Of a stretch of DNA of 64,000 bases, positions 8,690-30,507 are shown piece by piece. The notes under the pieces are model-generated. The model did no database searches and was not told the origin of the DNA. It saw only the letters and a program-made list of their open reading frames with translations. Source of the DNA: Holophagales bacterium UBA5704 (GTDB taxonomy: Bacteria; Acidobacteriota; Thermoanaerobaculia; Multivoradales; UBA5704); assembly GCA_002420005.1 (NCBI GenBank), contig DIHE01000147.1, positions 36,006-100,005 of the forward strand, in the 5' to 3' direction. Position 1 is the first letter of the stretch. Every line of letters starts with the position of its first letter. The position numbers were made by a program, and so were the translations under genes.

Positions 8690-10639
8690 TCACTCTCCCC
8701 GGAACCGGTAGATCCCTCCCTGCGAAGCGGCGAACAGAAGGTCCGGATCGCTTGGCGAGACGTTCAGGCCCATGAGCAGCGAAAAGGAGGTCGGCAGGCC
8801 GTCCTGGGACAGAGGAGCCCAGGAGGCTCCGGCGTCGGTGCTGCGATAGATCAGCCGCCCGAAGCCGGTGCCGTCGGAAAAGGCGTACAGGACGGAAGGG
8901 GCCGACGGCGCGGGCACGACGTTGAAGTCAGGACCGGCGGGCAACCCGGCCAGAGGGCTCCAGGTGACGCCGCCGTCCATGCTCCGGGAGGGGACGCTGC
9001 TCAGGCGGGCGTAGAGGACGTCCGGATCCTCGGAGGACACCGACAGCCCGGAGGCGAACGTCTGCCCCAGGTCCTTGACCACGTCCCAGGAAATCCCTCC
9101 GTCGACCGTCTTGAAGATCTGCTGGAAGGGGTAGCCGCCGAGGGCGTAGAGGGTTGACGGCTGCGAGGGCGCGATCCGGAGCGTACCCAGGTTCTGGGGA
9201 AGCCCCTGCATGCACGACCAGGTCGCCCCGTGGTCGGTGCTCTTGAGATGGTCGCAGACCGGGAGCGGCGCACACCCGATGACGAAGTCTCCGAGCGCGT
9301 AGAGATTCGCGGGCTCCTGCGGATCGATCACGACGTCCCTGATCCTCAGGCAGTCGAGGGTGGCCAGCTTCCGCCAGGTGGTGGCGGCGTCGCGGGTCTT
9401 CCAGAGGCCCCCGGCACCGGCGCCGAGAGCCACGCGGGGGAACTGCGGGTGCACCGCCAGCAGCTGGGCGGCGTGTCCGTCCCGCATCCAGGTGGCCCCG
9501 CCATCCAGGGAGTGCATCCCGACGCCGGTGGCATAGAGGACGTCCTGGGTGGCGGGGGCGAGGGTCAGGCTCTCGACACGGAGGGGAGGCAGGCCGCGGT
9601 TGGTTTCCTCCCAGGTGACGCCCCGATTCGTGCTCTTCAGGAGCCCCTGGCTGTCGGCGGCATGGATCACCGCGCCGCCGGCCGGGACGACGAGGAGCCG
9701 CGGAAAGCGCAGCGGCGTCGCCGCCGCCTGCCAGCGTCTCCCCTGGTTGGAACTGATGAACAGACCGTCCTCGGTGGCGGCATAGACGCGGGACGGCGAG
9801 ACGCCCGCCGCCAGGCCGAAGATCGTGCGGCCGCCGAGGCCTTTCGCCGCCGGCGACCAGGTCAGCCCACCGTCGAGGCTGCGGTACAGCGGCGCATCGT
9901 GGAGGCTGAGGATCTGCAGGAACAGGGCCGCCGGCGGGCCGGGCGCCATCGTCAAGCCGGTGAGCGGCGGCAGTGGCTCGGGTAGCCCGGAGTTGCGCGC
10001 GCTCCAGGTCGCGCCATCGTTCGTGCTCCGCAGGAAGCCCGCTTCGTCGTCGACGGCGTAGAGGGTTCCCGGCTTCCCGGGATGGAACCTGACCTCCGTC
10101 ACGTTGCTCCACCGCACAGTGCCCGCCTGGGCGCGCCAGGACGTTCCGCCGTCCGTGCTCTGGTAGATGCCGAGAACCGTGCCGGCGACGAGCCTCGCGG
10201 GGTTCCGCGGATCGATCGCGACGTCGTTCACCTGGCACGTGTCGAGACCGGTGAGGAGCTCCCAGGTCCGGCCGGCGTCGACCGTCCGGAACAGCCCGCC
10301 CACGGCCGGCTTGTCGTGGTACTCGGGATCGCAGACGACGGCGTAGGCCTTGGCGGGATTGCGCGGATCGACCTCCAGGTCGTCGACGGGCCGGCCGGCG
10401 GGAAAGTCGCCCGTCACCTCGCGCCAACCGGCTCCCGCGTCGACGCTCCGGAAGACCTTGCCGTCCCGGGTGCCGGCATAGAGGACCCGCGCGTTGCCCG
10501 GCGCCACCGTGAGCGCGCTCATCTCGGCGCCGAACGGTCCCAGGAGCTCCCAGCGGCCCTCCTGGGAGTGAGCCGGAGCCACGGCGGCCCCCAGAAGAAA
10601 GACCGCGGCGGCTGTACAAAGGATCGGTCGAGCGAACAT
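8690..10639 (-). CDS. Secreted BNR/Asp-box repeat beta-propeller protein (sortilin/Ycf48-like)
   Basis: Signal peptide MFARPILCTAAAVFLLGAAVAPAHS; multiple S-x-D-x-G-x-T-W BNR motifs (STDGGTSW, STNDGATW, SLDGGLTW, SMDGGVTW...); AAGGAG RBS. Confidence 0.8.
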   Translation of the reverse strand: MFARPILCTAAAVFLLGAAVAPAHSQEGRWELLGPFGAEMSALTVAPGNARVLYAGTRDGKVFRSVDAGAGWREVTGDFPAGRPVDDLEVDPRNPAKAYAVVCDPEYHDKPAVGGLFRTVDAGRTWELLTGLDTCQVNDVAIDPRNPARLVAGTVLGIYQSTDGGTSWRAQAGTVRWSNVTEVRFHPGKPGTLYAVDDEAGFLRSTNDGATWSARNSGLPEPLPPLTGLTMAPGPPAALFLQILSLHDAPLYRSLDGGLTWSPAAKGLGGRTIFGLAAGVSPSRVYAATEDGLFISSNQGRRWQAAATPLRFPRLLVVPAGGAVIHAADSQGLLKSTNRGVTWEETNRGLPPLRVESLTLAPATQDVLYATGVGMHSLDGGATWMRDGHAAQLLAVHPQFPRVALGAGAGGLWKTRDAATTWRKLATLDCLRIRDVVIDPQEPANLYALGDFVIGCAPLPVCDHLKSTDHGATWSCMQGLPQNLGTLRIAPSQPSTLYALGGYPFQQIFKTVDGGISWDVVKDLGQTFASGLSVSSEDPDVLYARLSSVPSRSMDGGVTWSPLAGLPAGPDFNVVPAPSAPSVLYAFSDGTGFGRLIYRSTDAGASWAPLSQDGLPTSFSLLMGLNVSPSDPDLLFAASQGGIYRFRGE

Positions 10640-10776: not shown

Positions 10777-12012
10777 TCAAGACACGGCCGCGGCGAGCGC
10801 CGGCTCTTCCAGCTCCGCCTCCTCCTCTTCGGCCACCGGCAGGGCGTCCGGAAAGCCCTTCCACCCGTCCGGCCCGAGGCGCATCTCGTCGTCGGTCAAC
10901 AGGCACTCCTCCAGCCGGCGGGTCAGCGCCTCCCGGTCCATGCCGATGCCGATCAGCACCAACTCCTGGCGCCGGTCGCCAAAGTCGGGGTGCCAGGTCT
11001 CCGCCAGCTCGCGGCGGAAATCCTCGTCCTCCGGCCAGTCCTCGGAGGGCATCGCGGCCCACCAGACGCCGCCGGGCGCCAGGGTCGAGCACCGGCCGGC
11101 GTGGGACCAGACGAAGATCTCGTCCATCCGCGAGGCCACCCACAGAAAACCCTTGGAGCGCACGACGCCGGGCCACTCCTCCAGGGCATACCGGCGGAAG
11201 CGCTCCGGATGGAACGGCCGCGCCGAGCGGAAGACGAAGCTCGCGATCCCGTACTCCTCGGTCTCGGGCACGTGCTCGCCGGCCAGCTCGCGCATCCAGC
11301 CCGCCGACGCGGAGGCCTTCTCCATGTCGAACAGACCGGTGTCGAAAATCGCCTCCAGCGGCACGCGCCCGTGCTCGCTGCGCACGATCCGCGCCGTCGG
11401 ATTGAGATGGCGCAGCAGACCCTCGATGCGGCCCAGCTCCTCCTCGGTCGCGAGATCCGCCTTGTTGAGCACCAGGACGTTGCTGAATTCGATCTGATCC
11501 ACCAGCAGATCGGCGATGGTCCGCTCATCCTCGGCGCCGGCGGTCAGTCCGCGCGCCAGGAGATCCTCGCCGCGCTCGATCTCGGCCAGGACGTTGGCCG
11601 CGTCCACCACCGTCACCAGGGTGTCCAGGCGGGCGAGGTCGCCCAGGCTCACGCCGTCGCCGTCGGTGAAGCTGAAGGTCATGGCCACCGGCAGAGGCTC
11701 GGAAATGCCGGTGGACTCGATGAGCAGGTAGTCGAAGCGCCCCTCGCGGGCCAGGCGGGACACCTCCAGCAACAGGTCTTCCCGCAAGGTGCAGCAGATG
11801 CAGCCGTTGGTCATCTCCACCAGCCGCTCCTCGGTGCGATCGAGACGGGCGTCGCCGTCGCGCACCAGCCGGGCGTCGATGTTGACCTCGCTCATGTCGT
11901 TGACGATCACCGCGACACGGCGCCCGCTGCGCTGGGCCAGGACATGGTTGAGAAGCGTCGTCTTCCCCGCGCCGAGGAAGCCGGAGAGGACGGTGACAGG
12001 GAGCTGGCTCAT
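10777..12012 (-). CDS. COG0523 G3E-family GTPase metallochaperone (CobW/ZigA/YjiA-like), putative zinc chaperone
   Basis: Walker [14 protein letters not shown] metal motif [10 protein letters not shown], His/acidic C-terminal region; AGGAGG RBS 9 nt upstream of ATG 12012; upstream part of track ORF is in-frame read-through. Confidence 0.85.
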
Positions 12013-12070
12013 GAGTGCGGTACCTCCTTCAAGTGAGAGGCCATTCTCAACAAGCCGACCCTGCCGGGTT

Positions 12071-12271
12071 GTGCGAAATCGCACCGCCCGAGGTCCCGCG
12101 GCGAGAGATGCTGGAGCCGCCAACGCCGCGCCCTCCGCGATAGGGCGCGGTGCCCATGATGCGTCCGCCGGGGCCAGAATCCCTCCGGCGGCGCCTTTTT
12201 TCCTTCAGCGCCCTGCACCCTCCCTCCTCCCTCGGAATTCTTTCTGTGCCTGTGCCGAATCGCACCGGTGC
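12071..12271. promoter_or_regulatory. Divergent promoter region with two copies of an imperfect-palindrome motif GTGC(C)GAA(A)TCGCAC and an 8-bp hairpin
   Basis: GTGCGAAATCGCAC 12071-12084; GTGCCGAATCGCACCGGTGC 12252-12271 (contains perfect palindrome GCACCGGTGC); CGCGCCCT-N7-AGGGCGCG 12127-12149; lies between divergent COG0523 gene and RiPP precursor. Confidence 0.3.
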
Positions 12272-12409
12272 AGGGGTGAAAAGCGGACAAACCGAACCGG
12301 CCGGGGCTCTCTATCCTCCCGCTCATTCGGCAGGCCTGCCGGAGACCCCGGTGCGGCGACGTGCCGCCGTGCCGATGCCGATCAACCCGTTTTCAGGAGG
12401 ATTACGCCC

Positions 12410-12553
12410 ATGGACTTCAAGAACGACATCTTCGAAGCCGTCTCCGCCACCCTCTCCGAGGATCCGGTCCACAGCAACACCCACAACCACGCTCTCGTCC
12501 ACAACCCCTTCGCCTGGGAAGAGGACGAGACCTCCACCCCCGACGCCGAGTAG
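12410..12553 (+). CDS. RiPP precursor peptide candidate (47 aa, Cys-free, His/Asn-rich): MDFKNDIFEAVSATLSEDPVHSNTHNHALVHNPFAWEEDETSTPDAE
   Basis: AGGAGG RBS 7 nt upstream of ATG; strong GC3 codon bias consistent with genuine coding; positioned immediately upstream of E1-like/YcaO/SagB operon; followed by stem-loop attenuator. Confidence 0.6.
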   Translation: MDFKNDIFEAVSATLSEDPVHSNTHNHALVHNPFAWEEDETSTPDAE

Positions 12554-12577
12554 CCCCACCCACGTCCTCGTTCCTCC

Positions 12578-12610
12578 GGGGGAGGCGGCACGTCGCCTCC
12601 CCCTTTCTTG
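12578..12610 (+). terminator. Stem-loop attenuator between precursor and modification genes (perfect 10-bp GC stem + TTTCTTG)
   Basis: GGGGGAGGCG(12578-12587) loop gcacgt CGCCTCCCCC(12594-12603) then TTTCTTG; typical of RiPP precursor-enzyme stoichiometry control. Confidence 0.5.
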
Positions 12611-12635
12611 CGACCTGGAGCTTGCAGGAGGCACC

Positions 12636-13460
12636 TTGAACGAAGCCCTGCGCGATGGTTGGCACCTTTGCCCCTCACCGGAGGGACGCTGGATGCTGGT
12701 CTCCCCCGAAGAGCGGTTCGTGCGGTTGCGCATCGAGCCGGAGCAGGCCGCCCGGCTGGCCCATCGGTTGACCGGCGGGACCACGGGCGGAGAGCCGGAG
12801 GGCGACCTGCTCCCGATCCTGGAGACGTTCGCGCAGCAGGGGCTGCTGGCCGACCGGCCGGCTGCGGTGTCCCCGCTCACCGGCCGCCATGTTCTGGTGC
12901 GCGGCGGCGGACCTGTCGCCGCCACGGTGACCCGCCTGCTGCGCGCGGCCGGCGTGGGACGGGTGACGGAACGCGACGCCGGAGCCCTTCCCGTCTCCAC
13001 GGTCGACGCGCCGCACGCGGTCATCGCCTGCGCCGGCTGGCTTCCCGATGCGGACTGGCTTCGGCTGGACGCCTGGTGCGCCGGGCACGGCATCGTCTGG
13101 ACCGGCTGCCACGCCGAGGGGCTGCGCTTTCATCTCGGCCCGCTGGCGATTCCCGGACGCACCGCGGGCTATGCCGATGTCCGCGCGCGGCGGCTCGCCG
13201 CGGCGCGCCATCCCGCGGAGCTCGAAGCCTGGTGGCGCCATCTGGACGGAGGCCGGGACGTTCCGGCGGTCCCCTGGCCGGAGCCGGCCGCCCTCGCCGC
13301 CCTCGCCGCCGCCCTCGCCGCCGACGTCCTGGCCTGGCTGAGCGGCAGGCCGCTCCCGCACGAAGGGGTGCAGCTCGCGTTCGATCCGGTGCGCTGGGAC
13401 TGGACGCGCCATCCGGTCCTGCCGGTGCCGCGCAACCTGATGCAGGAGCCCGCCGCATGA
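12636..13460 (+). CDS. E1-like (ThiF/MoeB-fold) YcaO partner protein with N-terminal RRE-like region (TOMM 'C'-type protein)
   Basis: Degenerate Rossmann HVLVRGGGPVAATVTRLLRAAGVGRV and ThiF-like HAVIACAGW..CAGHGIVW pattern, no catalytic CxxC; candidate starts TTG 12636 (AGGAGG upstream) or ATG 12693 (GGAGGG upstream); stop overlaps next start (ATGA). Confidence 0.55.
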   Translation: MNEALRDGWHLCPSPEGRWMLVSPEERFVRLRIEPEQAARLAHRLTGGTTGGEPEGDLLPILETFAQQGLLADRPAAVSPLTGRHVLVRGGGPVAATVTRLLRAAGVGRVTERDAGALPVSTVDAPHAVIACAGWLPDADWLRLDAWCAGHGIVWTGCHAEGLRFHLGPLAIPGRTAGYADVRARRLAAARHPAELEAWWRHLDGGRDVPAVPWPEPAALAALAAALAADVLAWLSGRPLPHEGVQLAFDPVRWDWTRHPVLPVPRNLMQEPAA

Positions 13461-14041
13461 ACGCCCAGGGACCGATCCTCGCCCTCTGCGGCAGCCTGCG
13501 CCACCCGTCGCGCACCCGCCAGGCCCTGGAACGCGCGCTCGCCGCAGCGGCGCGCCTGGGGGCCGCCACCGAGCTCCTCGCCGGGGAGCCGTTGCGCCTC
13601 CCCCTCTGCGACGGCCGCCCGGAGGCCGAGATCCCGCCCGCGGTGGCGGAGCTGCGGCACCGGGCGCGGGCCGCCGCGGCCCTGCTCCTCGGCTCGCCGG
13701 AGTACTGCGGCACCTACTCGGCGGTGATCAAGAACGTCGTCGAATGGCTCGGCCCCTCGATCCTGCAGGGCAAGGTGGTGGGCGTGGTCACCGTCGCCGA
13801 GGGGCCGAGCGCGCAGGGGTCCTTGCGCGCGCTGCGCGAGCTGTGCCTGCTCGAAGGTGCCTGGGTGGTGCCGGCCGCCGCGGCCATCCCGCTGGTCGAG
13901 CAGGTGTTCGCACAGCCGTCCGCGCCGCTGGCGGTCTCGGTGCTGCGCCACCTCGACGCCCTCGGCAAAGCCCTGCCGGGCGCCCTCCGCCGCCTGCACG
14001 GCCCTTCCGGCCGGCCTCCCGCGGAGGGTCTGCCGGCATGA
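13457..14041 (+). CDS. NAD(P)H-dependent FMN reductase (flavodoxin-like fold, SsuE/ArsH-like)
   Basis: ILALCGSLRHPSRT...LLLGSPEYCGTYSAVIKNVVEW motif of NADPH-dependent FMN reductase family; ATGA overlaps both neighbours. Confidence 0.7.
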   Translation: MNAQGPILALCGSLRHPSRTRQALERALAAAARLGAATELLAGEPLRLPLCDGRPEAEIPPAVAELRHRARAAAALLLGSPEYCGTYSAVIKNVVEWLGPSILQGKVVGVVTVAEGPSAQGSLRALRELCLLEGAWVVPAAAAIPLVEQVFAQPSAPLAVSVLRHLDALGKALPGALRRLHGPSGRPPAEGLPA

Positions 14042-15627
14042 GGGGGCGCAACGTCCCCTGCGTGCACGCCGGGCTCCGAGTGGAGGCGCCGGACGGGGTG
14101 CGGCTCGCGACGGACGTCTACCGGCCCGGCGCCGGACGGCCGGTGCCGGCGGTCCTGCTGCGCACCTACCTGGGCAAGGCGCGGCACCAGGAGGAGGCGC
14201 TGGCCTGGGTGCGCGAAGGCTTCGCCTGCGTGGTTCAGGACGTGCGGGGCCGCTACGACTCGGACGGCTCCTGGGAACCCTATGTCCACGAGCGGGCGGA
14301 TGGCGCCGCGGCGGCGCGCTGGACCGCCGGGCAGCCCTGGTGCGACGGCCGCGTGGTGGTGGCCGGCGGCTCGTATGGCGCCTTCACCGCCTGGGCGGCG
14401 GCCCTGGAGAGCCCGGTGGTGCGGGCGGCGGCGGTCTCCGTCCCCGCCATGCACCGGGTGAATTTCGCACCCGGCGGGGTGCTCAAGCTGCTCAATCACA
14501 CCGCCTGGTGGATGGCGCACGGAGACGCCCGCACCGAGCGGACCCGTCTGTTCGAGGCGATGTGCAGAGCCTGCCCGGATCTCCTCGCACGCCTGCCGGT
14601 CTGCGCTCTGCCACCGAATGTCTGGGCCGCGCTGCCCGGTTGGCTCCCCGCAGCCCTCGCCGGCCCCGGACGGCCCGCGGTCTCCGACGCGGATCTCGCC
14701 GGGCTCGCCCTGCCGGTGCTCCACATCGGAGGCTGGCACGATCCGTTCATCGCCCAGACGATCCACCAGCAGGCGACCGCCGGATCGGCCGTGGCGCCTC
14801 GGCCCATCCGCCGGATCATCGTCGGCCCCTGGACCCACGAGCTGCACAGCCACGTGCCCGCGGTCTATGGCGCGCGCACCTACGGGCCGGCCTCCCGCCT
14901 GCCGCTGGGGCGCCTGCAGGCCGAGTTCTTCCGCGGAGCCCTCGCGGATTGCACCGCGCCGGCGGCGCAGCTTTTTCTCACCGGTGCGAACCGCTGGCTC
15001 ACAGGGGACGGCTGGCCGCCGGTGCCGGTCGCGCCGTGCACCTGGTTTGCCTCCGCGGGCGGCGCTCTCGCTCCGGAGCCGCCCCGCGCCGGGGGCTCCG
15101 TCTCGTTCTCCTACGATCCCCTCTCCCCCTATCCCGGCCGCAACGGCCCGGTCGACCAGAGCGATCTGCTGCGCCGGCCGGACACCACCGCGTTCACCTC
15201 CCCACCGCTCGCCGCGCCGCTCACCTGGATCGGCGGACCGCGGGTGATCCTCCACGCCGCCACCGACGCCCCCGGCACCGACTGGGTCGCCCGCCTGCAT
15301 GAGGTCTTGCCGGATGGCCGCAGCCTCTACCTCGGCCATGGCCTGGTGGACGCGGCGCAGGAGCTCGCCCGCGACGGCGGAAAGCTCGTGCCGGGCGAGG
15401 CTCACCGGGTGGAGATCGACCTGCCCCCGCTCGCCATCACCCTCCCGGCAGGGCACCGGCTCCGCCTGGAGATCACCAGCAGCGACTTCCCGGCCCATGC
15501 GCGCAACCTGAACACCGGTGCCTGCCGCCTGACCACCTCGGCGACCCGGGTGGCGCGGCAGACGATCCTCCATGGACCCTCGGCTCCCACGGCCCTGGTG
15601 CTGCCGGTGGCACAGGAGCTCCCGTGA
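14038..15627 (+). CDS. CocE/NonD-family alpha/beta hydrolase (S15 X-Pro dipeptidyl-peptidase-like)
   Basis: Nucleophile elbow VVAGGSYGAF, S15-family N-terminal region (DGVRLATDVYRP), C-terminal beta-sandwich; translationally coupled within RiPP operon. Confidence 0.7.
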   Translation: MRGRNVPCVHAGLRVEAPDGVRLATDVYRPGAGRPVPAVLLRTYLGKARHQEEALAWVREGFACVVQDVRGRYDSDGSWEPYVHERADGAAAARWTAGQPWCDGRVVVAGGSYGAFTAWAAALESPVVRAAAVSVPAMHRVNFAPGGVLKLLNHTAWWMAHGDARTERTRLFEAMCRACPDLLARLPVCALPPNVWAALPGWLPAALAGPGRPAVSDADLAGLALPVLHIGGWHDPFIAQTIHQQATAGSAVAPRPIRRIIVGPWTHELHSHVPAVYGARTYGPASRLPLGRLQAEFFRGALADCTAPAAQLFLTGANRWLTGDGWPPVPVAPCTWFASAGGALAPEPPRAGGSVSFSYDPLSPYPGRNGPVDQSDLLRRPDTTAFTSPPLAAPLTWIGGPRVILHAATDAPGTDWVARLHEVLPDGRSLYLGHGLVDAAQELARDGGKLVPGEAHRVEIDLPPLAITLPAGHRLRLEITSSDFPAHARNLNTGACRLTTSATRVARQTILHGPSAPTALVLPVAQELP

Positions 15628-16988
15628 GCGATCCCCTGAAGCTCCTGGTCGATCCGCGCTTCGGCATCGTCACCGCGCTGGAGCGGCGCATGCATCCGCC
15701 GGAGGTGCCGCCGGCCCTGATCTCCTACACGGCACGGGTCGCCGACACCCGGCGGCTGGGTGCCTGGCAAGGGGACCGGGTGGCCCTCGGCTCCGCCTTC
15801 TGGGACGAGGACCGGGCGCGCCGCGCGGCGCTCGGCGAAGCGGTGGAACGCACCTGCGGCAACTTCGTCCCCGCCGGGCTGCTGCGCGCCTCGCACCGCG
15901 ACCTGCGCACGGCCGGCGAGCCGGCCCTCGATCCCGCCGCGATGGTGCTCTATGCGGACTCGCAGTACGACCACCGCGGCTTCCCCTTCGTCCGCTTCAC
16001 CGACGACCTGCGGGTGCTCTGGACGACCGGCCGCGATCTCGCGACCGGAGAGGCGGTGCGGGTGCCCGCGTCGTTCGTCTACATCAACTACTACGGCGGC
16101 GCCCTGGCCGGCGAGCCGAGGACGAACTTCGTCCTCTACTCCGGAATCGCCACCGGGCCGAATCGGGAGGCGGCGGAGGAGGCGGCCCTGGAGGAGCTCA
16201 TCGAGCGCGACGCCACCATGATCTGGTGGATGTCCGGCAGCCCGGCCGTCGGCATTCCTCTGGAAAGCGCACCGATGGTCCGCGCCGCTCTCGCCCATCC
16301 CGCCGACCACGGTACGCTGCACCATCACCTGATCCAGATCCGCACCCCTTTCGACGTGCCGGTGGTCGGCGCCCTGGTGCAGGACACGGAGCTGTCCCTG
16401 ATCGGGCTCGGCGTGGCCTGCCGCCCCGATCCCGGACAGGCCGCTCTCAAGGCGCTGGTCGAGGCGATCCACCTGCGCTGCTTCAGCCGCCAGATGCTCG
16501 ATCCCGGCGGCAGCGTCTGGCGCTCCATGCGCTCCGGAATCCTCGACCCCCGCGCCTACAAACCCTTCCGCGCCGACCGCGCCTACCGGGATGCGTACCG
16601 CGCCGACTTCCGCGACGTGACCGACCTCGGAGCCCAGTCGCAGATCTATCTCGACCCCCGGATGCACGTCCACGCCGACCGCATCCTCCACCCTGCCGCC
16701 TGGGCCCCCCTGGATCGGCTGCCCGCCGTCCCGGGCCGCGCCGCCTACCGGCAACGGCTCGCCGCGCGCGGCTTCCGGGCGATCTCGGTGGACGTCACCA
16801 CGCCGGACGTGCAGGCCGCCGGCTTGTGCGTCGTGCGGGTGATCGTCCCGGGGCTCTACCCGAACGCGCCCGCCGCCTTCCCGTTCCTCGGCGGGCGCCG
16901 GCTGTATGAAGAGCCGGCGGCGCTCGGCTGGCTCCCGGCGCCGCTCACCGAGGCCGACCTGGTCCGCGTCCCCCTGCCGCACACATGA
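15624..16988 (+). CDS. YcaO-domain cyclodehydratase (azoline-forming type, C-terminal Pro-rich motif)
   Basis: YcaO ATP-binding glutamate motifs (LGEAVERTCGN, LEELIERDA), C-terminal VRVPLPHT PxP motif; GTGA/ATGA overlaps. Confidence 0.85.
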   Translation: MSDPLKLLVDPRFGIVTALERRMHPPEVPPALISYTARVADTRRLGAWQGDRVALGSAFWDEDRARRAALGEAVERTCGNFVPAGLLRASHRDLRTAGEPALDPAAMVLYADSQYDHRGFPFVRFTDDLRVLWTTGRDLATGEAVRVPASFVYINYYGGALAGEPRTNFVLYSGIATGPNREAAEEAALEELIERDATMIWWMSGSPAVGIPLESAPMVRAALAHPADHGTLHHHLIQIRTPFDVPVVGALVQDTELSLIGLGVACRPDPGQAALKALVEAIHLRCFSRQMLDPGGSVWRSMRSGILDPRAYKPFRADRAYRDAYRADFRDVTDLGAQSQIYLDPRMHVHADRILHPAAWAPLDRLPAVPGRAAYRQRLAARGFRAISVDVTTPDVQAAGLCVVRVIVPGLYPNAPAAFPFLGGRRLYEEPAALGWLPAPLTEADLVRVPLPHT

Positions 16989-18292
16989 GCGAGCCGCCCG
17001 TCCTCGCCTACCACCGGCGGAGCAAGAACCGTCCGGGCCGCCCCGCCGCGGCACCCCGGAGGCTCGACCGCTCCATCGAGCCGGTCCCCTTCCGGCGCTA
17101 CCGCGGTGCCGCCCTGCTCCCCCTGCCGGAGATCCCGCCGGTGGACGGCCCGGCCTGGGGGGAGCTGTTCATCCCCGGCGCCGTCGCCCCTGCACCGCTC
17201 GACCGGGAGGCCGTGGCCCGCCTGTTCTTCGACTCCCTGGCGATCTCCGCCTGGCGCGAGGAGGCCGGCGCCCGCTTCTCGTTCCGGGTGAACCCCTCCG
17301 CCGGCAACCTCCATCCGACCGAGGCCTATCTCCTCGCCGGCCCCCTGCCCGGGCTGCACGACCGGGCCGCCCTCTACCACTACTCACCGTTCGACCACGC
17401 CCTGGAGATCCGCGCCGATCTGCCGGACGGCGGCGTGCCGCCCGGCACCCTCCTTCTCGGATTCACCTCGATCCTCTGGCGCACCGCCTGGAAATACGGC
17501 GAGCGCGCCTTCCGCCTCGCCCGGCTCGACGCGGGGCATGCCCTCGCCGCGGTCACCTGGGCCGCCGCGGCCCTGGGCTGGGAAGCGCGGCAGGTGGAGA
17601 TCGGCGACGCGGCGCTGGCGCGCCTGCTGGGTGTCGCCGCGCAGGAAGGGCCGGAACGCGAGGAACCGGTGGCCCTGCTCGCCCTCGGAGCCCCGCCCGA
17701 CGCCCGGCCCGGGGCGCCGGGGGACGGCGGCCGTCCGAACCGGATCAGCCCCGGCCACCGGAGCTGGCCGGCGCTCGACGCCGTCACCGCGGCCACCCGC
17801 CACCCGGGTGCGGAGCGGCAGGCCGCACCGGGTGCGGAGACGGCGCGCGCCGTCCTGCGCGGCCGGCGAAGCCCGGCGGCGTTCGCGGGCGCCTTGGGAG
17901 CGGAGGAAATTTCCCGGGTTTTTGCCGGTGGACTTTCTCGCCCGTTCGTGCAGCGGCCCCTGCTGCGGGTCGAACGTCTGCTCCCGGGCGACGGCGTGGA
18001 CCTTCGCCGCCTGGCCGGCCACCAGAGCTTCGCGGCCGGCGCCTCCTGCCTCGCGGTGCTGCTGGGTGACCTGGAGCCGGCGCTCGCCCCCGGCGGCGCC
18101 TGGCTCTACCGCCGGCTGCATGAGGAGGCCGGAGCGATCGGGCACGCGCTCTCCCTGGAGGCGGCGGCGCAGGGCCTGGGAGCGCGGGGCATCGGCGGAT
18201 TTCTCGACGACGAGGTTCTGGCCGCTCTCGGGTTGCCGGCGGAGGGCCGGTGGCAGGCCCTGTATCTGTTGGCGGTGGGGCGGCCGGCGTGA
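16985..18292 (+). CDS. SagB-type (McbC-like) FMN-dependent dehydrogenase, nitroreductase superfamily
   Basis: FSFRVNPSAGNLHPTEAYL signature of SagB/ThcOx dehydrogenases; two nitroreductase-like halves. Confidence 0.8.
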   Translation: MSEPPVLAYHRRSKNRPGRPAAAPRRLDRSIEPVPFRRYRGAALLPLPEIPPVDGPAWGELFIPGAVAPAPLDREAVARLFFDSLAISAWREEAGARFSFRVNPSAGNLHPTEAYLLAGPLPGLHDRAALYHYSPFDHALEIRADLPDGGVPPGTLLLGFTSILWRTAWKYGERAFRLARLDAGHALAAVTWAAAALGWEARQVEIGDAALARLLGVAAQEGPEREEPVALLALGAPPDARPGAPGDGGRPNRISPGHRSWPALDAVTAATRHPGAERQAAPGAETARAVLRGRRSPAAFAGALGAEEISRVFAGGLSRPFVQRPLLRVERLLPGDGVDLRRLAGHQSFAAGASCLAVLLGDLEPALAPGGAWLYRRLHEEAGAIGHALSLEAAAQGLGARGIGGFLDDEVLAALGLPAEGRWQALYLLAVGRPA

Positions 18293-19602
18293 AGGCCTTC
18301 GGTCGCCTCGTCGATCCCCGGCTGGGCCTCCTGCGCCGCCTCGCCCTGGAGCCGCTGCCGCCGCACCTCCCCCCCGGCCTCTGCCAGGCCCGCGCCGAGA
18401 TCGCCGACAGCCGCGCCTTCTCCCCCTGGACGAGCGACGCCGCCGCGGCCGGGCTCGCCTGGTGGAACGCGGAGGCGGCCCGCGCCGCGGCGGTTGGTGA
18501 GGCGGTCGAGCGCTATTGCGGCAACGTCGTGCCCACCGGGCTGCGGCGCGCTTCCTACGCCGAGCTCGCCGCCGGTGGTGGGGCGGCCCTCGATCCGGCG
18601 GATCTCGCCCTCTATGCCCCGGAGCAGTATCGCCGGCGCGGTTTCCCCTTTGTGCCGTTCACCCGCGACCTGCAGGTGCTGTGGACCACGGGCTTCGATC
18701 TGGCCACCGGGGACTCCGTGGCCGTCCCGGCCTCCTGGGTGTGGACCTCGTGGAGCACCGGGCCGGCGGCCGGCGAGCCGAAGACCCACGGCACGATCTA
18801 CGCAGGCATCGCGGCCGGCCCGTCCCGGGAGGAGGCCGAGCGCAGCGCTCTCGCGGAGCTCGTGGAACGCGATGCGGTCCACCTCGCCTGGACGGCCGGC
18901 GTCCCCCTCCCCCGGCTCACGCCACCGGCCTGGATGGAGCCCTTGCTCACCGCTGCGCGCGGGGCGGTCACCGCCGAGCTGTACCTCTTCCCCAACGCCT
19001 TCGGCCTGCCGGTCGTCGGCGCCCTCCTGCGCGACCGGGAGGCCGGCGTGGTGACCCTGGGCCAGGCCTGCCGCACCACACCCGTCGACGCGGCCCTCAA
19101 AGCGGTGGCCGAGGCCGCCCAGCTCAACCTGGTCGCCCGCGCCCTGGCCGACCCGCAAACCGGCCTCGCCGACCGCCTCGCCGCCGTCCCCGGCGCCGCG
19201 CTCCATCCCTGGCGGGCCGACCGCGGCTACGCCGCGCTCTACGGTCCCCTCTGGCGCGGCGCCCGCGATCTCCTGTGCCATCTCCAGCTCCATCTCGATC
19301 CGGCTCTGCACAAGCCCCTCGCCGATCGGCTCGCCACCGGAGGCACCCGGCCCCTGGCCGACCTCCCCGCCGCCGGCCCCGAAACCCGGGAGACCTACCT
19401 GACGCGCCTGCACGCCCGCGGCTTCCGCGCCGTCTCGGTCGACGTCACCACCTCCGACGTCGCCCCGACGGGCCTGCGCGTCGTCCGGGTCGTGGTCCCC
19501 GGGCTCTACGCCAATGCCCCCGCCGCCTTCCCCTATCTGGGAGGACGGCGGCTGGCGGAGGCGGGCGGGGTGCGCTGCACCCTGCCGCCTCCCTATGCGT
19601 GA
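18289..19602 (+). CDS. Second YcaO-domain protein, paralogue of 15624-16988
   Basis: GEAVERYCGN / LAELVERDA motifs; C-terminal block VSVDVTTSDVAPTGLRVVRVVVPGLYANAPAAFPYLGGRRL nearly identical to first YcaO; GTG 18289 overlaps SagB stop; ends LPPPYA. Confidence 0.85.
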   Translation: MKAFGRLVDPRLGLLRRLALEPLPPHLPPGLCQARAEIADSRAFSPWTSDAAAAGLAWWNAEAARAAAVGEAVERYCGNVVPTGLRRASYAELAAGGGAALDPADLALYAPEQYRRRGFPFVPFTRDLQVLWTTGFDLATGDSVAVPASWVWTSWSTGPAAGEPKTHGTIYAGIAAGPSREEAERSALAELVERDAVHLAWTAGVPLPRLTPPAWMEPLLTAARGAVTAELYLFPNAFGLPVVGALLRDREAGVVTLGQACRTTPVDAALKAVAEAAQLNLVARALADPQTGLADRLAAVPGAALHPWRADRGYAALYGPLWRGARDLLCHLQLHLDPALHKPLADRLATGGTRPLADLPAAGPETRETYLTRLHARGFRAVSVDVTTSDVAPTGLRVVRVVVPGLYANAPAAFPYLGGRRLAEAGGVRCTLPPPYA

Positions 19603-19676
19603 GGTGGACCACGCTAGAGCAGGAGCGCCGCGGGGTCGCTTGCGTGCCGTAGGTGCGTGAGTGCGATGACTCAGCT

Positions 19677-19706
19677 GCGGGAGCTTACTGTATAATAGGG
19701 GAGAAT
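19677..19706 (+). promoter_or_regulatory. Putative sigma70-type promoter (TGACTC-N18-TATAAT) for island genes
   Basis: Perfect TATAAT at 19701-19706 in locally AT-rich DNA, 150 nt upstream of lipoprotein ATG. Confidence 0.35.
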
Positions 19707-19857
19707 GAAATCGCTCCTGAAGGGCACCCTACCAACTCCCAAGCTCTCGGAGGGGCGTTCTGATACAGGAGTGTAGCCAGAGCCTTCTTCTCGCCGCAAA
19801 TAGAACTCGGCGAAGCCTGGGCAATGCTGGGCGTCGCCACCATGAGGGAGAAACGCT

Positions 19858-20277
19858 ATGCGTAAATCGTTGGCACTGATCCCCATCCTGGCCATCCTGG
19901 AAGCACTCAGCTCGTGCGCAAGTGCAAACTTCACGCCTGCTCAACAGGCTTGGATGGCCAAGAGAGACCAGCAGCCGCTGAGCTTCGTCGTCCCCGCCGC
20001 CGAGGCCAATGCCGCTTGGGCGCGAGCACAAGAGTGGATTGCACGGTTCGGCCAACTGCCGATTCTCACTACCAACGAGAGTGTAATCCAAACACAGCAA
20101 CCCGAGTATCCCGCTGCTGAGGTAGGAATGAAAGCCGTTCGGAGTCAGCTTCCGAACGGGGACTATCAGTTTTATGTCGACGCACTGAGTGCCAACGTCT
20201 TCTCGCGACCTCAGATGATGCGAATGGCTCAAGCCTGTGCCTATTACATTGCGAGCGGAATTCCCTATCCCGAATGA
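19858..20277 (+). CDS. Small lipoprotein of unknown function (lipobox ALSSC)
   Basis: Signal peptide MRKSLALIPILAILEALSSC; GAGGGAG RBS; lower-GC codon usage than flanks. Confidence 0.55.
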   Translation: MRKSLALIPILAILEALSSCASANFTPAQQAWMAKRDQQPLSFVVPAAEANAAWARAQEWIARFGQLPILTTNESVIQTQQPEYPAAEVGMKAVRSQLPNGDYQFYVDALSANVFSRPQMMRMAQACAYYIASGIPYPE

Positions 20278-20389
20278 CCCCGCTGAGCCTGGCAAGGGCG
20301 GTGCCCCCCATTCATCACAGGCGCGAGGTTCGCCCCTCCGGGAAGACTTCTCGCGGAGAACGGTCGCTCACACTCAAGGGGTTCTTGGA

Positions 20390-21205
20390 ATGAAGACGCA
20401 CCTTGGAATTCTACTCGGCCTTGCGTACATTGCTGGATTTCTTTCTGTTCAGGTTCACCTGCTCCGCTTTGGTATCCTGGAGATTTCTGCCCTTCAGGCC
20501 TACTACATTCTCGTGGGTTTCTGGTTCCTTCTGTGCATAGCGCCCGCACTGGCGACCATCCTCGCCTTGGAGTACGCGCTTTCGCCTTCGGACTCGCGGC
20601 GAGTCAGGGTCCTTGTCGTGCTCACCGGAGGTACAATTGCCGCAGCCGCAATCGCGGGAGGAAGCCGATTCGCTGCTCATCAGATGATTCTTAACTTCAA
20701 CGCCTATCCATACCCTTCTTGGTATGCAGTTGCAAACCTCGCAAATATGAATTTTTCCCTGGTTTTAGTCTGGGTTCTATCATTCGCCTACTCCAGGTTT
20801 ACGGGCTCCAAGAGAACAGCACGAAAGATTGGAGCCGCAGCCGGGGCGATCGCCTTATCTAGTGCAATTATATTCTTTGGTCGCACCATCTATCCTGCAT
20901 TGGATCATGGCGTGGGTGGAGGGGCGCCGCAGTTCGTCGAAATCATGGAAGACAACGGCCACCGCCGCATCGCGATGCAGATCCACGCTGGCGAAAATTA
21001 TCTCTACCTTCTAGAGCTTACGGCACTACCGGCGAAATTCGAGAGTCGCTTAGCCATAACGCAGTTCACAACAGATTCAGGTGGCCCCGTCTTCCGCGCC
21101 CTCGCCGACAACCAGATTCTTAAACTGAGAAACAGTCGCATAGATATTGTTAGAATCTTCGGACTCAGTCAGAGAGGAACCATTGGTAGCTACCTCGGCA
21201 AGTGA
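20390..21205 (+). CDS. Polytopic inner-membrane protein of unknown function
   Basis: Start MKTHLGILLGLAYIAGFLSV; at least 6 hydrophobic segments; located in lower-GC island. Confidence 0.5.
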   Translation: MKTHLGILLGLAYIAGFLSVQVHLLRFGILEISALQAYYILVGFWFLLCIAPALATILALEYALSPSDSRRVRVLVVLTGGTIAAAAIAGGSRFAAHQMILNFNAYPYPSWYAVANLANMNFSLVLVWVLSFAYSRFTGSKRTARKIGAAAGAIALSSAIIFFGRTIYPALDHGVGGGAPQFVEIMEDNGHRRIAMQIHAGENYLYLLELTALPAKFESRLAITQFTTDSGGPVFRALADNQILKLRNSRIDIVRIFGLSQRGTIGSYLGK

Positions 21206-21550
21206 AACACTTACCCTACCTCAGGCACGCCACCGAGCGGAGAGCCCCGCGTTGTTCTCCAGCTGGCGCCGTGAATAGGAATGGTCCGAGGGATCGGTAG
21301 ATCGGCCCAAGCGAGAGAAGATCGGCGAGACCGCCTGGCGGGTGGATAATCCGGACCTTGGACCGTAGGGTCCTGCCTTGCGTTCCAGCGACTCCCGCCC
21401 ACATGTGCCTGCCGGACCTTGATCTGAGTGAGGCTCGCCACCCAAGGACCGGGAGCCTCCGCCCGCGGGCGGGGTACCCCCGCATCTCGGGTATTGGCGC
21501 TATACTTCCGTGCGTCCAGCCCTTCTTGCGGGCTGGCAGAGGAGTTTTGA

Positions 21551-21790
21551 ATGTACGCTGTCTACACGCTCCGTGCCGAAGAGCTCGACCTGCGCTTTCT
21601 CGAGACACTCAAGAGTCAGTTCCGTGATCGTGAAATCGAGATCGCGATCTGTGAGGTCGCAGGGCGGGCCGAGGATGAGACCGCCTACCTCCTCCGCTCC
21701 CCCGCCAATCGGGAGCGCCTCCTGGACGCCATCGAGAACGTGAGCCAAGGCAGGGAGATCGTGACCCTCGACCCCGCCGAGCTTCGATGA
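21551..21790 (+). CDS. yefM: YefM/Phd-family antitoxin
   Basis: C-terminal [25 protein letters not shown] closely matches E. coli YefM [31 protein letters not shown] RBS. Confidence 0.85.
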   Translation: [79 protein letters not shown]

Positions 21791-22044
21791 AGAAGATCGC
21801 TTTCGAGCGGCGCGCCTTCGAGGACTTCACCGACTGGGCAACTACCGATCGGCAGACCCACAAACGCATCGTCGCCCTCATCGCCGACATTCTGCGAGAG
21901 CCTTTTTCGGGCCTGGGAAAGCCTGAGCCCTTGCGCCATGAGATGCAGGGGTACTGGTCCCGCCGGATCGACCAGGAGCATCGACTGGTCTACAGAGTGG
22001 ATCCGGACGCGGTGACCATCATCGCCTGCAAGTACCACTACTGA
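21787..22044 (+). CDS. yoeB: YoeB/Txe-family mRNA interferase toxin (RelE superfamily)
   Basis: PFSGLGKPEPLRHEMQGYWSRRIDQEHRLVYRVD...IIACKYHY matches YoeB catalytic C-terminus (RYHY); ATGA overlap with yefM. Confidence 0.88.
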   Translation: MKKIAFERRAFEDFTDWATTDRQTHKRIVALIADILREPFSGLGKPEPLRHEMQGYWSRRIDQEHRLVYRVDPDAVTIIACKYHY

Positions 22045-25278: not shown

Positions 25279-26063
25279 GACACCCTCCCGGGCAGGGCGA
25301 CCATCTCGGCCACCGCGGAGCCGAACGTCCGCTCGAAGACGCCGGACTCGATCAGCTCCCCGGCGCCGCCGGCCACCAGCGGCCCTCCCTTGGGCAGCAG
25401 CCAGAGGCGGTCGGCGTTGCGCAGGGCCAGCTCCAGATCGTGGGTCGACAGGAGGACGGCCTTGCCTTCGTCGTGCGCCAGCCGGCGCAGGATGCGCAGA
25501 ACCTCCACCCGGTGCGGCAGGTCGAGGAACGCCGTCACCTCGTCGAGGAGCAGCACCTCCGGCTCCTGCGCCAGGGCGCGCGCGATCATCACCTTTTGCC
25601 GCTCGCCGTCCGACAGCTCGGCGACGCTGCGGCCGGCCAGGTCCTGCGCTCCCACGGCGGCGAGGGACCGTTGGACGATCGCGTGATCGGCCGCGGCGAG
25701 CCGCCCCGACCAACCGGTGTACGGGTAGCGGCCGAGCTCCACCAGGGCGGTGGCGGTGAGCGCCTCGACGACGATGCGGTCGGTGAGCACCACGGCGAGA
25801 TGGCGGGCCAGCCGCCGCGGCCCCAGCTCCCGCAGATCCTCGCCGGCGACCACCACCCGCCCGGCGAGCGGCGGCTGCATGCCGGCCAGCGTGCGCAGCA
25901 AGGTGGACTTGCCGGCGCCGTTCGGCCCCAGGAAACAGACGAGCTCGCCGCGGCGCAGCACCGTCTCGATACCCTCCAGCACCGGCCGCGGCCGGCGATG
26001 CCGGACATAGCCGACCGCAAGCCCTTCGACGCGGAGCGGGGGCCGGTTTGCGTCGTCTCTCAT
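25275..26063 (-). CDS. ABC transporter ATP-binding protein (FepC/FecE/BtuD-like)
   Basis: Walker A GPNGAGKST, signature LSDGERQKV, Walker B LLLDEVT; ATGA overlaps on both sides. Confidence 0.85.
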   Translation of the reverse strand: MRDDANRPPLRVEGLAVGYVRHRRPRPVLEGIETVLRRGELVCFLGPNGAGKSTLLRTLAGMQPPLAGRVVVAGEDLRELGPRRLARHLAVVLTDRIVVEALTATALVELGRYPYTGWSGRLAAADHAIVQRSLAAVGAQDLAGRSVAELSDGERQKVMIARALAQEPEVLLLDEVTAFLDLPHRVEVLRILRRLAHDEGKAVLLSTHDLELALRNADRLWLLPKGGPLVAGGAGELIESGVFERTFGSAVAEMVALPGRVS

Positions 26064-27091
26064 AGCTCCAGGGCCCTCCCGCGGCGTTGGCGCAGGATCA
26101 CCCAGAGGACGACCGGCGCTCCGACCAGCGCGTTGACGGCGTTCAGATGCAGAAAATGGCGGTCCCAGGGGAGATGGACGATCAGGTCCGCGCCCAGGGC
26201 GAGGAGCGCCCCCAGGAGAGCCACCCCCGGCACCAGCCGCCGGTGGTCCGAGGTGCGCAGCAGGCCCCGGCCGAGATGGGGGACGGCGATGTCGAGAAAC
26301 GCGATGGCCCCGCAATACGCCGTCACGGTGCCGGCGAGGACGACCGTCCCCAGGAGCGCCGCGGTGCGCACGCCACCCACCGCGGCCCCCAGCGACCGCG
26401 CGTAGCGCTCGCCGAGCAGGAGCGCATTGAGCGGCTTCACCAGGAGCACCGCACCGAGGAGACCCGCCAGCAGAGCGGGGACGAGCACCCCCAGCCGCGC
26501 CGGGGTGACGCCGCCGAAGCTGCCATCCAGCCAGTTGGAGAAGATCCGGCTCTGGGTCTCGGTGGTGAAGTGGAGGACCAGGCTGACCAGACCCTGCGAC
26601 AAATACCCGAACATCAACCCGACGATGAGCAAGGTGACCGCGCTCACCTGCCGCGCAGCCGCGGTGACCGCCAGCAGCACCAGAGACGCACCGAGGAAGG
26701 CCCCGGCGGTCAGCGACAGCTCGCCGAGCCAGGCGAGGCGCGCCAGGAGCTCCGAGCCCACCGCCGCCGCCGCGGTCACCACCAGGGCCACGCCGAGCTG
26801 CGCCCCGGCCGTGACGCCGAGCGCCCAGGGGCCGGCGAGGGGATTGCGGAAGAGTGTCTGCATCTGGAGCCCCGCGACCGCCAGGGCGGCGCCGGACAAC
26901 GCCGCCGCCAACGCCCGCGGCAGGCGCAGCTCGAAGAGGATGGTCGACCAGGTGGCCTTCGCCGCCGCACCGCCACCGAGAAGGGAGAGCACGTCGCGCA
27001 GCGGAATGGCCACCGAGCCGATCGACAGGCTGAGCAGAAACAGGGCCACCACCGCGACGGCCAACAGCAGGAGCAAGGCGCCGGATCGCAT
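26060..27091 (-). CDS. FecCD-family iron-siderophore/cobalamin ABC permease
   Basis: ~10 TM segments, BtuC/FhuB-like motifs; ATG overlapping SBP stop. Confidence 0.8.
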   Translation of the reverse strand: MRSGALLLLLAVAVVALFLLSLSIGSVAIPLRDVLSLLGGGAAAKATWSTILFELRLPRALAAALSGAALAVAGLQMQTLFRNPLAGPWALGVTAGAQLGVALVVTAAAAVGSELLARLAWLGELSLTAGAFLGASLVLLAVTAAARQVSAVTLLIVGLMFGYLSQGLVSLVLHFTTETQSRIFSNWLDGSFGGVTPARLGVLVPALLAGLLGAVLLVKPLNALLLGERYARSLGAAVGGVRTAALLGTVVLAGTVTAYCGAIAFLDIAVPHLGRGLLRTSDHRRLVPGVALLGALLALGADLIVHLPWDRHFLHLNAVNALVGAPVVLWVILRQRRGRALEL

Positions 27092-30347: not shown

Positions 30348-30507
30348 GACCCCATCCTCGTGAGCGAAACGTTCTTTCGATCACGGCGGGCAGGCACACC
30401 TCGGCCCTGGACGCGAACGCCCTTTTCAGCGCGCAGCTTGACCAGGCGGGCGCAAAGCTCCGCCATCGCCGTGCCAACGGCACCACCAACGAAACGTTTT
30501 TATCGGG

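Follow-up and report, generated by a model that had tools for sequence, protein, structure and literature searches.

A probable streptamidine-family precursor gene with an undescribed core variant, flanked by conserved hairpins, in an Acidobacteria genome

Analysis of a 64,000-nucleotide stretch of DNA from Holophagales bacterium UBA5704 (contig DIHE01000147.1; hereafter the window) revealed a short gene upstream of six genes on the same strand, among them two YcaO genes. Its product is very probably a precursor (amiA-type) of the streptamidine family of RiPPs (peptides made on the ribosome and modified after translation), encoded here in an Acidobacteria metagenome-assembled genome (MAG). The encoded peptide, MDFKNDIFEAVSATLSEDPVHSNTHNHALVHNPFAWEEDETSTPDAE, has 47 amino acids (aa), is Cys-free, and contains, besides eight Ser and Thr residues in total, His at 21, 25, 27 and 31. 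In the six downstream genes each start overlaps the preceding stop, and the precursor alone stands apart, with 82 nt that contain a hairpin before the enzyme block. The parts of the precursor gene and the genes that follow it are listed below by position in the window and strand.

12395-12400 (+): Shine-Dalgarno sequence AGGAGG, 9 nt upstream of the precursor ATG
12410-12553 (+): precursor gene (amiA-like), ATG at 12410 and TAG at 12551-12553; 47 aa plus stop
12410-12466 (+): leader, M1-P19, placed by alignment; motif IFEAV
12467-12484 (+): predicted core VHSNTH, V20-H25, placed by alignment
12485-12550 (+): follower NHALVHNPFAW and acidic tail, N26-E47, placed by alignment; motif ALVHNPFAW
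12636-13460 (+): amiB-like gene (RiPP recognition element, RRE, plus E1-like partner; predicted leader binding); TIGR03882 (TOMM precursor leader peptide-binding) at 31 bits, below cut-off
13457-14041 (+): NADPH-dependent flavin mononucleotide (FMN) reductase; PF03358, E = 2.4e-28; ATGA overlaps on both sides
14038-15627 (+): amiC-like CocE/NonD (peptidase S15) hydrolase, the presumed leader peptidase; TIGR00976 at 280 bits, PF02129, PF08530
15624-16988 (+): YcaO number 1 (SagD-type); PF02624, E = 1.9e-54; TIGR03604 at 278 bits versus a cut-off of 219; C-terminus ...VPLPHT
16985-18292 (+): amiE-like SagB-type flavin dehydrogenase (nitroreductase fold); PF00881; TIGR03605 at 73 bits versus a cut-off of 78
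18250-19602 (+): YcaO number 2 (SagD-type); PF02624, E = 1.3e-54; TIGR03604 at 245 bits versus a cut-off of 219; C-terminus ...LPPPYA

That 12410-12553 is a real, translated gene was confirmed. The GC content at its codon positions 1/2/3 (0.60/0.36/0.91, in a window of 70.5% GC) is the coding pattern of this genome and, together with the third-position changes seen across loci, argues that the open reading frame (ORF) is translated; homologous ORFs are likewise preceded by GGAGG or GGAG sites. When the conserved block was compared pairwise over ten loci, differences at codon positions 1/2/3 numbered 43/37/196, with 174 synonymous codon differences to 71 non-synonymous ones: selection acts on the peptide at the protein level. 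A spurious ORF was considered and rejected. The frame is open from 11789, and its portion upstream of the ribosome-binding site (RBS) overlaps cobW on the opposite strand, yet conservation and the bias toward G and C at third codon positions (GC3) are confined to the part that follows the RBS. The gene had already been called, unnamed, in NCBI record GCA_036724675.1, whose contig DAIMFI010000002.1 corresponds to the window, and NCBI, ENA and Logan assemblies proved, in a word-indexed search, to carry existing calls of a 47-aa protein identical to it. A Pfam scan gave no match for the peptide or for the AmiB-like protein. An earlier note on this DNA had described the ORF, its RBS, the His positions, the Ser/Thr count and the absence of Cys correctly; its proposal that the ORF is very likely translated is borne out by the GC3 of 0.91 and the third-position-biased change among loci, and its assignment as a RiPP precursor ahead of an E1-like/YcaO operon by conservation in syntenic clusters.

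The precursor is conserved in at least 16 syntenic loci (loci carry L numbers below), so the small-ORF conservation that the earlier note had asked about is present. Besides the identical protein, six homologues (46-49 aa) came out of the word-indexed search. GTDB genomes and JGI metagenomes, when scanned, contributed relatives in MAGs of Acidobacteriota (including Thermoanaerobaculia), Anaerolineaceae, Egibacteraceae and Pseudonocardiales, and four more loci were reached through homologues of the AmiB-like protein. Among 1.84 billion representatives searched exhaustively with HMMER, only 18 relatives had E <= 0.001, about 7 of them with an H-x-N-x-H-N-H core; the precursor sub-family is small. 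The gene order peptide-AmiB-[FMN_red]-S15-YcaO-[SagB]-YcaO is kept in L005-L017 and is conserved in 10 other loci, and every homologous locus of sufficient length has two YcaO genes. NCBI lists, under the name Acidobacteria bacterium (a MAG), a partial protein that is 100% identical to the AmiB-like one, and AmiB-like homologues of Protofrankia, Micromonospora and Dactylosporangium share 39-45% identity with the window protein. In two relatives a SAM (S-adenosylmethionine)-dependent methyltransferase gene lies between the S15 hydrolase and the first YcaO (L005, 3435-4271; L020, 5408-6241); it is absent from the window cluster, which implies product diversification within the sub-family.

The streptamidine family was described by Russell et al. 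2021, Chem Sci (PMC8442711), as 237 short peptides encoded beside one YcaO clade and recorded from Actinobacteria and Firmicutes only. The peptides bear motif A (..HLSATHSNALVENPF..) or motif B (..APQGPGTNALVHNPFA..), the tripeptide ALV being the sole overlap, and 22 listed members have neither; a subset of clusters with two YcaO genes goes with motif B (PMC8442711). The tables of that study include ..LAHLSATHSNALVENPFD (motif A; core HLSATH, giving streptamidine) and ..PTTHALVQNPFAWDEEK from Frankia, and its supplementary tables ..EQLAHLSATHSNALVENPFD (motif A) and ..APQDPTTHALVQNPFAWDEEK (Frankia symbiont). Streptamidine itself is made by amiA-F/T of Streptomyces albidoflavus J1074, and the AmiA network is 'Network 1', with motif A. 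In the product, the His1 amine and the Leu2 carbonyl of the core HLSATH are joined in a six-membered amidine, and no azol(in)e is present (PMC8442711). AmiB (E1-like/RRE by Phyre2), AmiC (hydrolase), AmiD (YcaO) and AmiE (dehydrogenase) are each essential, AmiE even though streptamidine shows no oxidation and its Ser and Thr are unmodified; one explanation proposed was that 'a reductase reverses this activity' (PMC8442711).

The window peptide has the family signature, that is, a leader with (I/V)FE.., a short His-containing core, ALV-x-NPF(AW) and an acidic tail, and from its ORF it is 3.1 kb to the YcaO gene at 15624 and 5.7 kb to that at 18250, both downstream on the same strand. In a MAFFT alignment of 19 peptides, published members included, HLSATH was aligned over V20-H25 with Ser3, Thr5 and His6 matched; A, L, V and F of the follower were invariant and N and P nearly so, corresponding to A28-L29-V30-H31-N32-P33-F34 of the window. 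The core is predicted by this alignment to be VHSNTH (V20-H25). The peptide mixes features of both published motifs and may be regarded as an A/B hybrid because it keeps the Ser/Thr/His core positions of motif A together with the motif B follower ALVHNPFAW. In seven close homologues HSNTHNHALV.NPFAW is invariant. The sole NCBIfam match of the peptide was NF040715 ('streptamidine-related RiPP repeat protein'), over residues 27-38 with E = 2.5e-5. Thus, the class of precursor is not new, having been described in 2021, but this core variant is undescribed: HSNTH and NHNHALV have no occurrence in the PMC8442711 peptide tables.

Several observations weigh against this assignment. The NF040715 match, although a significant similarity, scored 24.1 bits against a cut-off of 45 and is below the trusted threshold, and NF040714 (streptamidine family RiPP) scored 10 bits against a cut-off of 40. 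The core string was found in 0 of 266 published peptides. The predicted core borders rest on a single alignment, and N26 and H27 are also invariant in the sub-family, so the core could be longer. Finally, no two-YcaO cluster of the family has a characterized product, which makes an amidine in the present case an extrapolation.

Some relatives depart from the common core. In P0035 the whole unit is duplicated, with two VHTNSHNHALVQNPFAW repeats in 70 aa, as in published repeat precursors. In the L013 peptide (9986-10129) the conserved block contains a Cys (HSNTHCNALV), and ..ACNHNHALV is the reading in several Chloroflexota-type relatives. A search of the window for a second or Cys-containing precursor (patterns ALV-x-NPF, NPFAW and the His array) found none, and the alternative Cys-containing precursor that the earlier note had entertained is therefore not present in the window.

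The AmiB-like protein deserves a closer description. Its probable start is TTG 12636, preceded by AGGAGG at 12626-12631, whereas the public annotation starts at ATG 12693 and gives 255 aa. The N-terminal extension from TTG 12636 (NEALRDGWH..., motif LRxGWH) is conserved in the L005 and L007 proteins, and with the AGGAGG ahead of it the 274-aa form is probably correct. By sequence profile, matches of AmiB to PDB were marginal only (MccB and TruD, E ~0.003), and a comparison of folds was needed. An AlphaFold2 model (pLDDT, the predicted local distance difference test, of 91) gave in Foldseek LynD (4v1t) at E = 2.6e-14, followed by TruD, MccB and McbB. The modeled structure confirmed the predicted RRE plus E1-like fold, in agreement with the Phyre2 result for AmiB (PMC8442711). 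The FMN reductase gene is present in the window, L005, L007, L014, L017 and L023 and absent from L006, L012, L013, L015, L020 and L022. It may have to do with the essential dehydrogenase of streptamidine biosynthesis, whose need is unexplained.

As the core aligns with HLSATH, an N-terminal amidine ring is expected rather than Ser/Thr azolines. By analogy with streptamidine, the AmiB-like RRE would bind the leader and the S15 hydrolase would cut it off, freeing the alpha-amine of V20. One YcaO would then activate the H21 carbonyl with ATP, and attack by the free amine would form a six-membered N-terminal amidine beside the conserved Ser22. Trimming of the follower would leave roughly VHSNTH minus H2O, with a calculated [M+H]+ of 676.316. 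The second YcaO, the dehydrogenase and the FMN reductase may add or assist a further modification, and it could be that this two-YcaO/FMN-reductase variant gives a metal-related peptide with two modifications (an azoline or a second amidine in addition to the first amidine).

The earlier note had suggested a different chemistry, with the eight Ser/Thr residues as possible cyclodehydration substrates and the His array as the possible basis of a metal-binding product. A related alternative is a classical azol(in)e pathway, similar to that of thiazole/oxazole-modified microcins or linear azol(in)e-containing peptides, in which the YcaO protein(s) would cyclodehydrate Ser22 and/or Thr24, the SagB-like enzyme would oxidize the ring, and the His-rich product would bind metal and be re-imported, with an amidine possibly formed too. 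Both YcaO proteins exceed the cut-off of the SagD family TIGR03604 and have Pro-rich C-termini, an E1-like partner and a SagB-type dehydrogenase are encoded, and the second YcaO needs a function. S22 and T24 are invariant in close homologues and show no change other than Ser/Thr exchange when the wider set of loci is considered, the streptamidine pathway yielded shunt products that contain an oxazoline (PMC8442711), and FecCD, TonB-dependent receptor and CobW genes adjoin the cluster. On the other hand, the sole family member characterized so far bears an amidine while its Ser and Thr are unmodified, and its essential dehydrogenase leaves no oxidation. There is no Cys/Ser/Thr-rich core, as PMC8442711 says likewise of the whole family, and six of the eight Ser/Thr residues (S12, T14, S16, T41, S42 and T43) fall at non-conserved leader or tail positions. 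With regard to metal, streptamidine bound none of seven metals tested and was negative in the chrome azurol S (CAS) assay (PMC8442711); of the His residues only H21 and H25 fall in the aligned core, H27 and H31 belonging to the follower, and H31 is replaced by E or Q in relatives. We consider the azol(in)e pathway rather unlikely. The cyclodehydration of all eight residues was not upheld, and the metal-binding product draws its support only from gene context. By analogy, then, N-terminal amidine formation should take the place of Ser/Thr cyclodehydration as the predicted chemistry.

The second subject of this analysis is a pair of hairpins that bracket the precursor gene.

12349-12374 (+): 5'-untranslated region (UTR) hairpin CGGTGCGGCG-ACGTGC-CGCCGTGCCG, with a hexaloop that is the exact reverse complement of the 3' loop
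12578-12603 (+): 3' hairpin GGGGGAGGCG-GCACGT-CGCCTCCCCC, 10 bp (12578-12587 with 12594-12603) and a 6-nt loop
12604-12610 (+): T-rich tail TTTCTTG, a weak U-tract with 5 T in 7

The 3' hairpin and its tail are the perfect 10-bp stem-loop and TTTCTTG of the earlier note and were found at 12578-12610 as described. In a terminator scan of 11900-20500 this hairpin ranked first (11 pairs, 9 of them GC), and the 44-nt segment around it folds with -25 kcal/mol; the fold alone is unexceptional for a GC-rich window (z = -1.67 over 87 nt). It is more than chance because it is conserved and covarying in other loci, not because of its fold energy. A strong hairpin follows the stop codon in 16 of 16 loci examined, with differing sequences, and separates the precursor from the coupled enzyme genes. 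The hexaloop GCACGT recurs in nine loci (window, L005, L021, L007, L006, L022, L014, L017 and L020, the last with GCACGG) and lies 31-51 nt past the stop in the eight loci measured. The stems are all different: GGGGGAGGCG in the window, and GGGGGAAGGGCG, GCAGGGGG, GGGGGGTGTG, GAGGGCTGGTG, GGCTGGTG and GGGGGAGC elsewhere. In an ungapped alignment 85.6% of cells were paired and 7 of 10 pairs had changed on both sides, and the covariation score was 0.522, versus 0.240 for shuffles (0/500) and at most 0.358 for slid controls. The 3' hairpin is a selected, conserved RNA structure and not a chance palindrome.

Its function may be considered in two ways. An attenuator is plausible, and the 3' hairpin would most likely define and stabilize an abundant short precursor transcript and limit read-through into the enzyme genes. 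The U-tract is good in L022 (TTTTTGG) and L006 (CTTTTTCC), but weak in the window and absent from L005 (CCTCCTTCC), L021 (GCCTTC) and L014 (AGGGTTG), which speaks against simple termination: as the U-tract is not conserved, canonical intrinsic termination is unlikely to be the whole conserved function. The loop is invariant and the U-tract is not, and this points to a loop-specific role beside or instead of termination. An Rfam scan of 11800-13000 gave only sub-threshold matches at chance level, the best being P31 small RNA at 22 bits versus a cut-off of 40, on the opposite strand. The 8-mer GGCACGTC has 5 matches in the window versus 5.0 expected; as it is not enriched, it is no dispersed repeat, and what it can tell lies only in where it sits and in its being conserved.

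In the nine loci with the GCACG(T/G) loop, ACGTGC occurs 47-99 nt upstream of the start codon, and in 7 of the 9 the loop of a local hairpin consists wholly or mostly of it. These 5' hairpins were located at ~142-167 in L005, ~173-198 in L007, ~5310-5330 in L006, ~1024-1049 in L017, ~2748-2773 in L020 and ~1028-1053 in L021. The 5' stems covary as well (7 of 10 pairs changed on both sides; score 0.444 versus 0.180 for shuffles, 0/500). When a covariance model was built from the 3' hairpins alone, the 5' elements, on the opposite strand, were its next-best matches; for example, the 5' element of L007 scored 26 bits with E = 0.004. The spacing between the 5' and 3' elements is 215-273 nt across loci, and in the window their complementarity extends to 14 nt (GGCGACGTGCCGCC / GGCGGCACGTCGCC). 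The two-hairpin arrangement was found in at least nine loci, the named members including Acidobacteria and Anaerolineaceae MAGs. When 218 kb (the window plus the other loci) were scanned strictly for stem-GCACG(T/G)-stem, the matches beyond the precursor flanks were two 5-bp background ones and one 8-bp hairpin. The latter, with a GCACGG loop, is located at ~30461-30482 (-), ~115-135 nt upstream of the start of the TonB-dependent receptor gene (30347), and AACGTTTCG occurs twice in the same receptor intergenic region (30366-30374 and 30490-30498).

Since the loops are complementary, the two hairpins could kiss or form a long-range duplex. Whole-transcript folds predicted a long-range 5'-3' duplex in the window, L005, L021 and L007; in the window it was favored at -100.3 kcal/mol versus -98.9 for two local hairpins. 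These energies cover nested structures, as the folding tools used cannot evaluate pseudoknotted kissing. For five more distant loci no long-range duplex was predicted: both hexaloops were unpaired in L017 and L020, and in L006, L014 and L022 the 3' loop was largely free and the 5' element partly paired. In these models the common denominator is a G-C closing pair with complementary hexaloops, the geometry of a kissing complex.

It is possible, and we suggest it only tentatively, that the precursor is bracketed by an undescribed cis-regulatory RNA module in which loop kissing, or a switch to a long-range duplex in which the 3' hairpin is melted, sets mRNA stability and read-through into the maturation genes. 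Put more specifically, ACGUGC and GCACGU would kiss, or pair as a 14-17-bp duplex in close relatives, and so fold the precursor mRNA into a closed form; this would stabilize the mRNA or toggle the 3' hairpin between termination and read-through, simple termination not being the conserved function. This account is compatible with the amidine pathway and its attenuator. In 8 of 9 loci each loop is the exact reverse complement of the other, although stems and flanks diverge, the spacing is conserved, the U-tract is not, and no Rfam family matches the region; the folds pair both elements in the four loci named above and leave both loops unpaired in L017 and L020 and the 3' loop largely free in L006, L014 and L022. 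Against it, no covariation between the two loops was seen. The loops are nearly invariant, and the U-to-G change of L020 (GCACGG) is uncompensated, facing an unchanged ACGUGC. Furthermore, the 5' element of L014 is weakly structured, and the 3' hairpins of L010-L013, L015, L016 and L023 have unrelated loops and no obvious complementary 5' partner. In our view such base pairing between the two hairpins is rather unlikely.

Further upstream, a palindrome is present in two copies.

12070-12085 (facing cobW): second palindrome copy TGTGCGAAATCGCACC, in the divergent cobW-precursor intergenic region
12251-12266 (+): CRP/FNR-like palindrome TGTGCCGAATCGCACC, 159 nt before the precursor ATG; candidate operator

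The consensus TGTGCnnAATCGCAC was found at -150 to -180 in the window, L005, L007, L014, L017 and L020; L021 and L015 have copies that are degenerate. From its sequence the palindrome is a candidate operator of the cluster-linked Crp-family regulator, which suggests that the operon and cobW may be co-regulated; with the palindrome as operator, the 5' hairpin would lie inside the 5' UTR.

A reading of the 8-mers GACGTGCC (upstream) and GGCACGTC (downstream) as DNA sites, either Crp half-sites or inverted repeats of a phase-variable segment, could appeal to the opposite orientations of one element flanking the gene, to the CRP-like palindrome ~100 nt further upstream with its GTGC/GCAC half-sites (putative operator TGTGC-N6-GCACA) and to the Crp-family genes beside three clusters, but it is very improbable, as the arms change sequence yet stay complementary, which is the signature of a single-stranded hairpin and not of a double-stranded protein site, no recombinase gene lies near the cluster, and the orientation is constant in nine loci and in four independent assemblies of the locus (L001-L004). 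An inverton was rejected on the same grounds (no recombinase, constant orientation), each 8-mer being at the apex of its own covarying palindrome.

The following genes surround the operon.

10777-12012 (-): CobW/COG0523-type metallochaperone GTPase, divergent; PF02492, PF07683
22081-22827 (-): Crp/Fnr-family transcription regulator at the cluster edge; PF13545, PF00325
22840-25713 (-): MacB/FtsX-type ATP-binding cassette (ABC) permease
26060-28345 (-): FecCD-type permease
28290-30347 (-): TonB-dependent receptor

A Crp-family gene is also located beside the cluster in L005 and L023. The transport genes can be compared with amiF1-F4 and amiT1-2; a distance of 3-10 kb separates them from the operon, and they are encoded on the opposite strand, a looser linkage than in the ami cluster. 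FecCD together with a periplasmic binding protein gene (Peripla_BP_2 beside L008) flanks a related cluster (L008/L010, 1-1524), and TonB-dependent receptor genes lie beside related clusters in L020 (1-1601) and L023 (497-2641). Such neighbors in other MAGs reinforce the association of the family with uptake in Gram-negative hosts. Between the last YcaO and the Crp regulator, the region 19600-21900 has a low GC content (52-65%, versus ~75% in the operon), contains small unannotated ORFs and a YoeB-type toxin pair, and differs between assemblies (a 97-aa ORF in L001 where L002 has a 271-aa ORF); it looks like a variable insertion. A sigma-70 promoter scan of 11900-20500 returned 0 sites, and the host may rely on promoters of another type.

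Although widespread, the streptamidine family still awaits an explanation of what it does biologically and of what its essential dehydrogenase contributes. The locus takes the family into Gram-negative Acidobacteria, with relatives that reach Chloroflexota, and offers a third core type bridging motifs A and B. The context of TonB receptor, FecCD, CobW and FMN reductase sharpens two hypotheses of PMC8442711, a metal or uptake function and a reductase that reverses the dehydrogenase step. The paired complementary-loop hairpins provide a mutationally testable model of precursor over-production relative to the enzymes and, if the proposed pairing is true, would represent a new way to fix precursor-to-enzyme stoichiometry in a RiPP operon. 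What is new here is the core motif, the phylum, the two-YcaO plus FMN-reductase architecture with Gram-negative uptake genes, and the complementary-loop hairpin pair; no later work on two-YcaO streptamidine-like clusters was found in a limited literature search.

Compared with known systems, the locus is most readily set beside AmiA and the ami cluster, with which it shares a short Cys-free precursor with an (I/V)F leader motif, a core of the form x-x-S-x-T-H, ALV-x-NPF and an acidic tail, as well as AmiB, AmiC, YcaO and AmiE genes after the precursor and Fec-type and ABC transport genes nearby. It differs in the core, VHSNTH(NH) versus HLSATH, in the FAW of motif B in the follower, in having two YcaO genes and an extra FMN reductase, and in its host, a Gram-negative Acidobacteria MAG with a TonB-dependent receptor. 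The motif B two-YcaO clusters of Frankia, Rhodococcus and Clavibacter (PMC8442711) resemble it in the two YcaO genes and in the follower ALVHNPFA(W/F), for example the Frankia peptide ..PTTHALVQNPFAWDEEK. Before ALV, however, motif B has no Ser, Thr or His array (APQGPGTN); there the window peptide resembles motif A, whose Ser/Thr/His positions it retains, and many of those clusters are without amiB or amiE (PMC8442711), both of which are present in the window. Klebsazolicin (a YcaO amidine made with an E1-like partner and a dehydrogenase) and bottromycin (a YcaO amidine with two YcaO proteins) are comparable by analogy (PMC8442711); their precursors are unrelated in sequence and their products contain azoles or thiazoline from Cys or Ser, whereas the window peptide is Cys-free. 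For the 3' hairpin, the closest parallel is the microcin C operon, in which a terminator hairpin between mccA and mccB leads to an abundant monocistronic precursor transcript (PMC6495379). In both cases a hairpin is located straight after a very short precursor ORF and ahead of the enzyme genes; the window element, known here from sequence alone, differs from the mccA-mccB terminator in its weak U-tract, its conserved loop and its complementary 5' hairpin.

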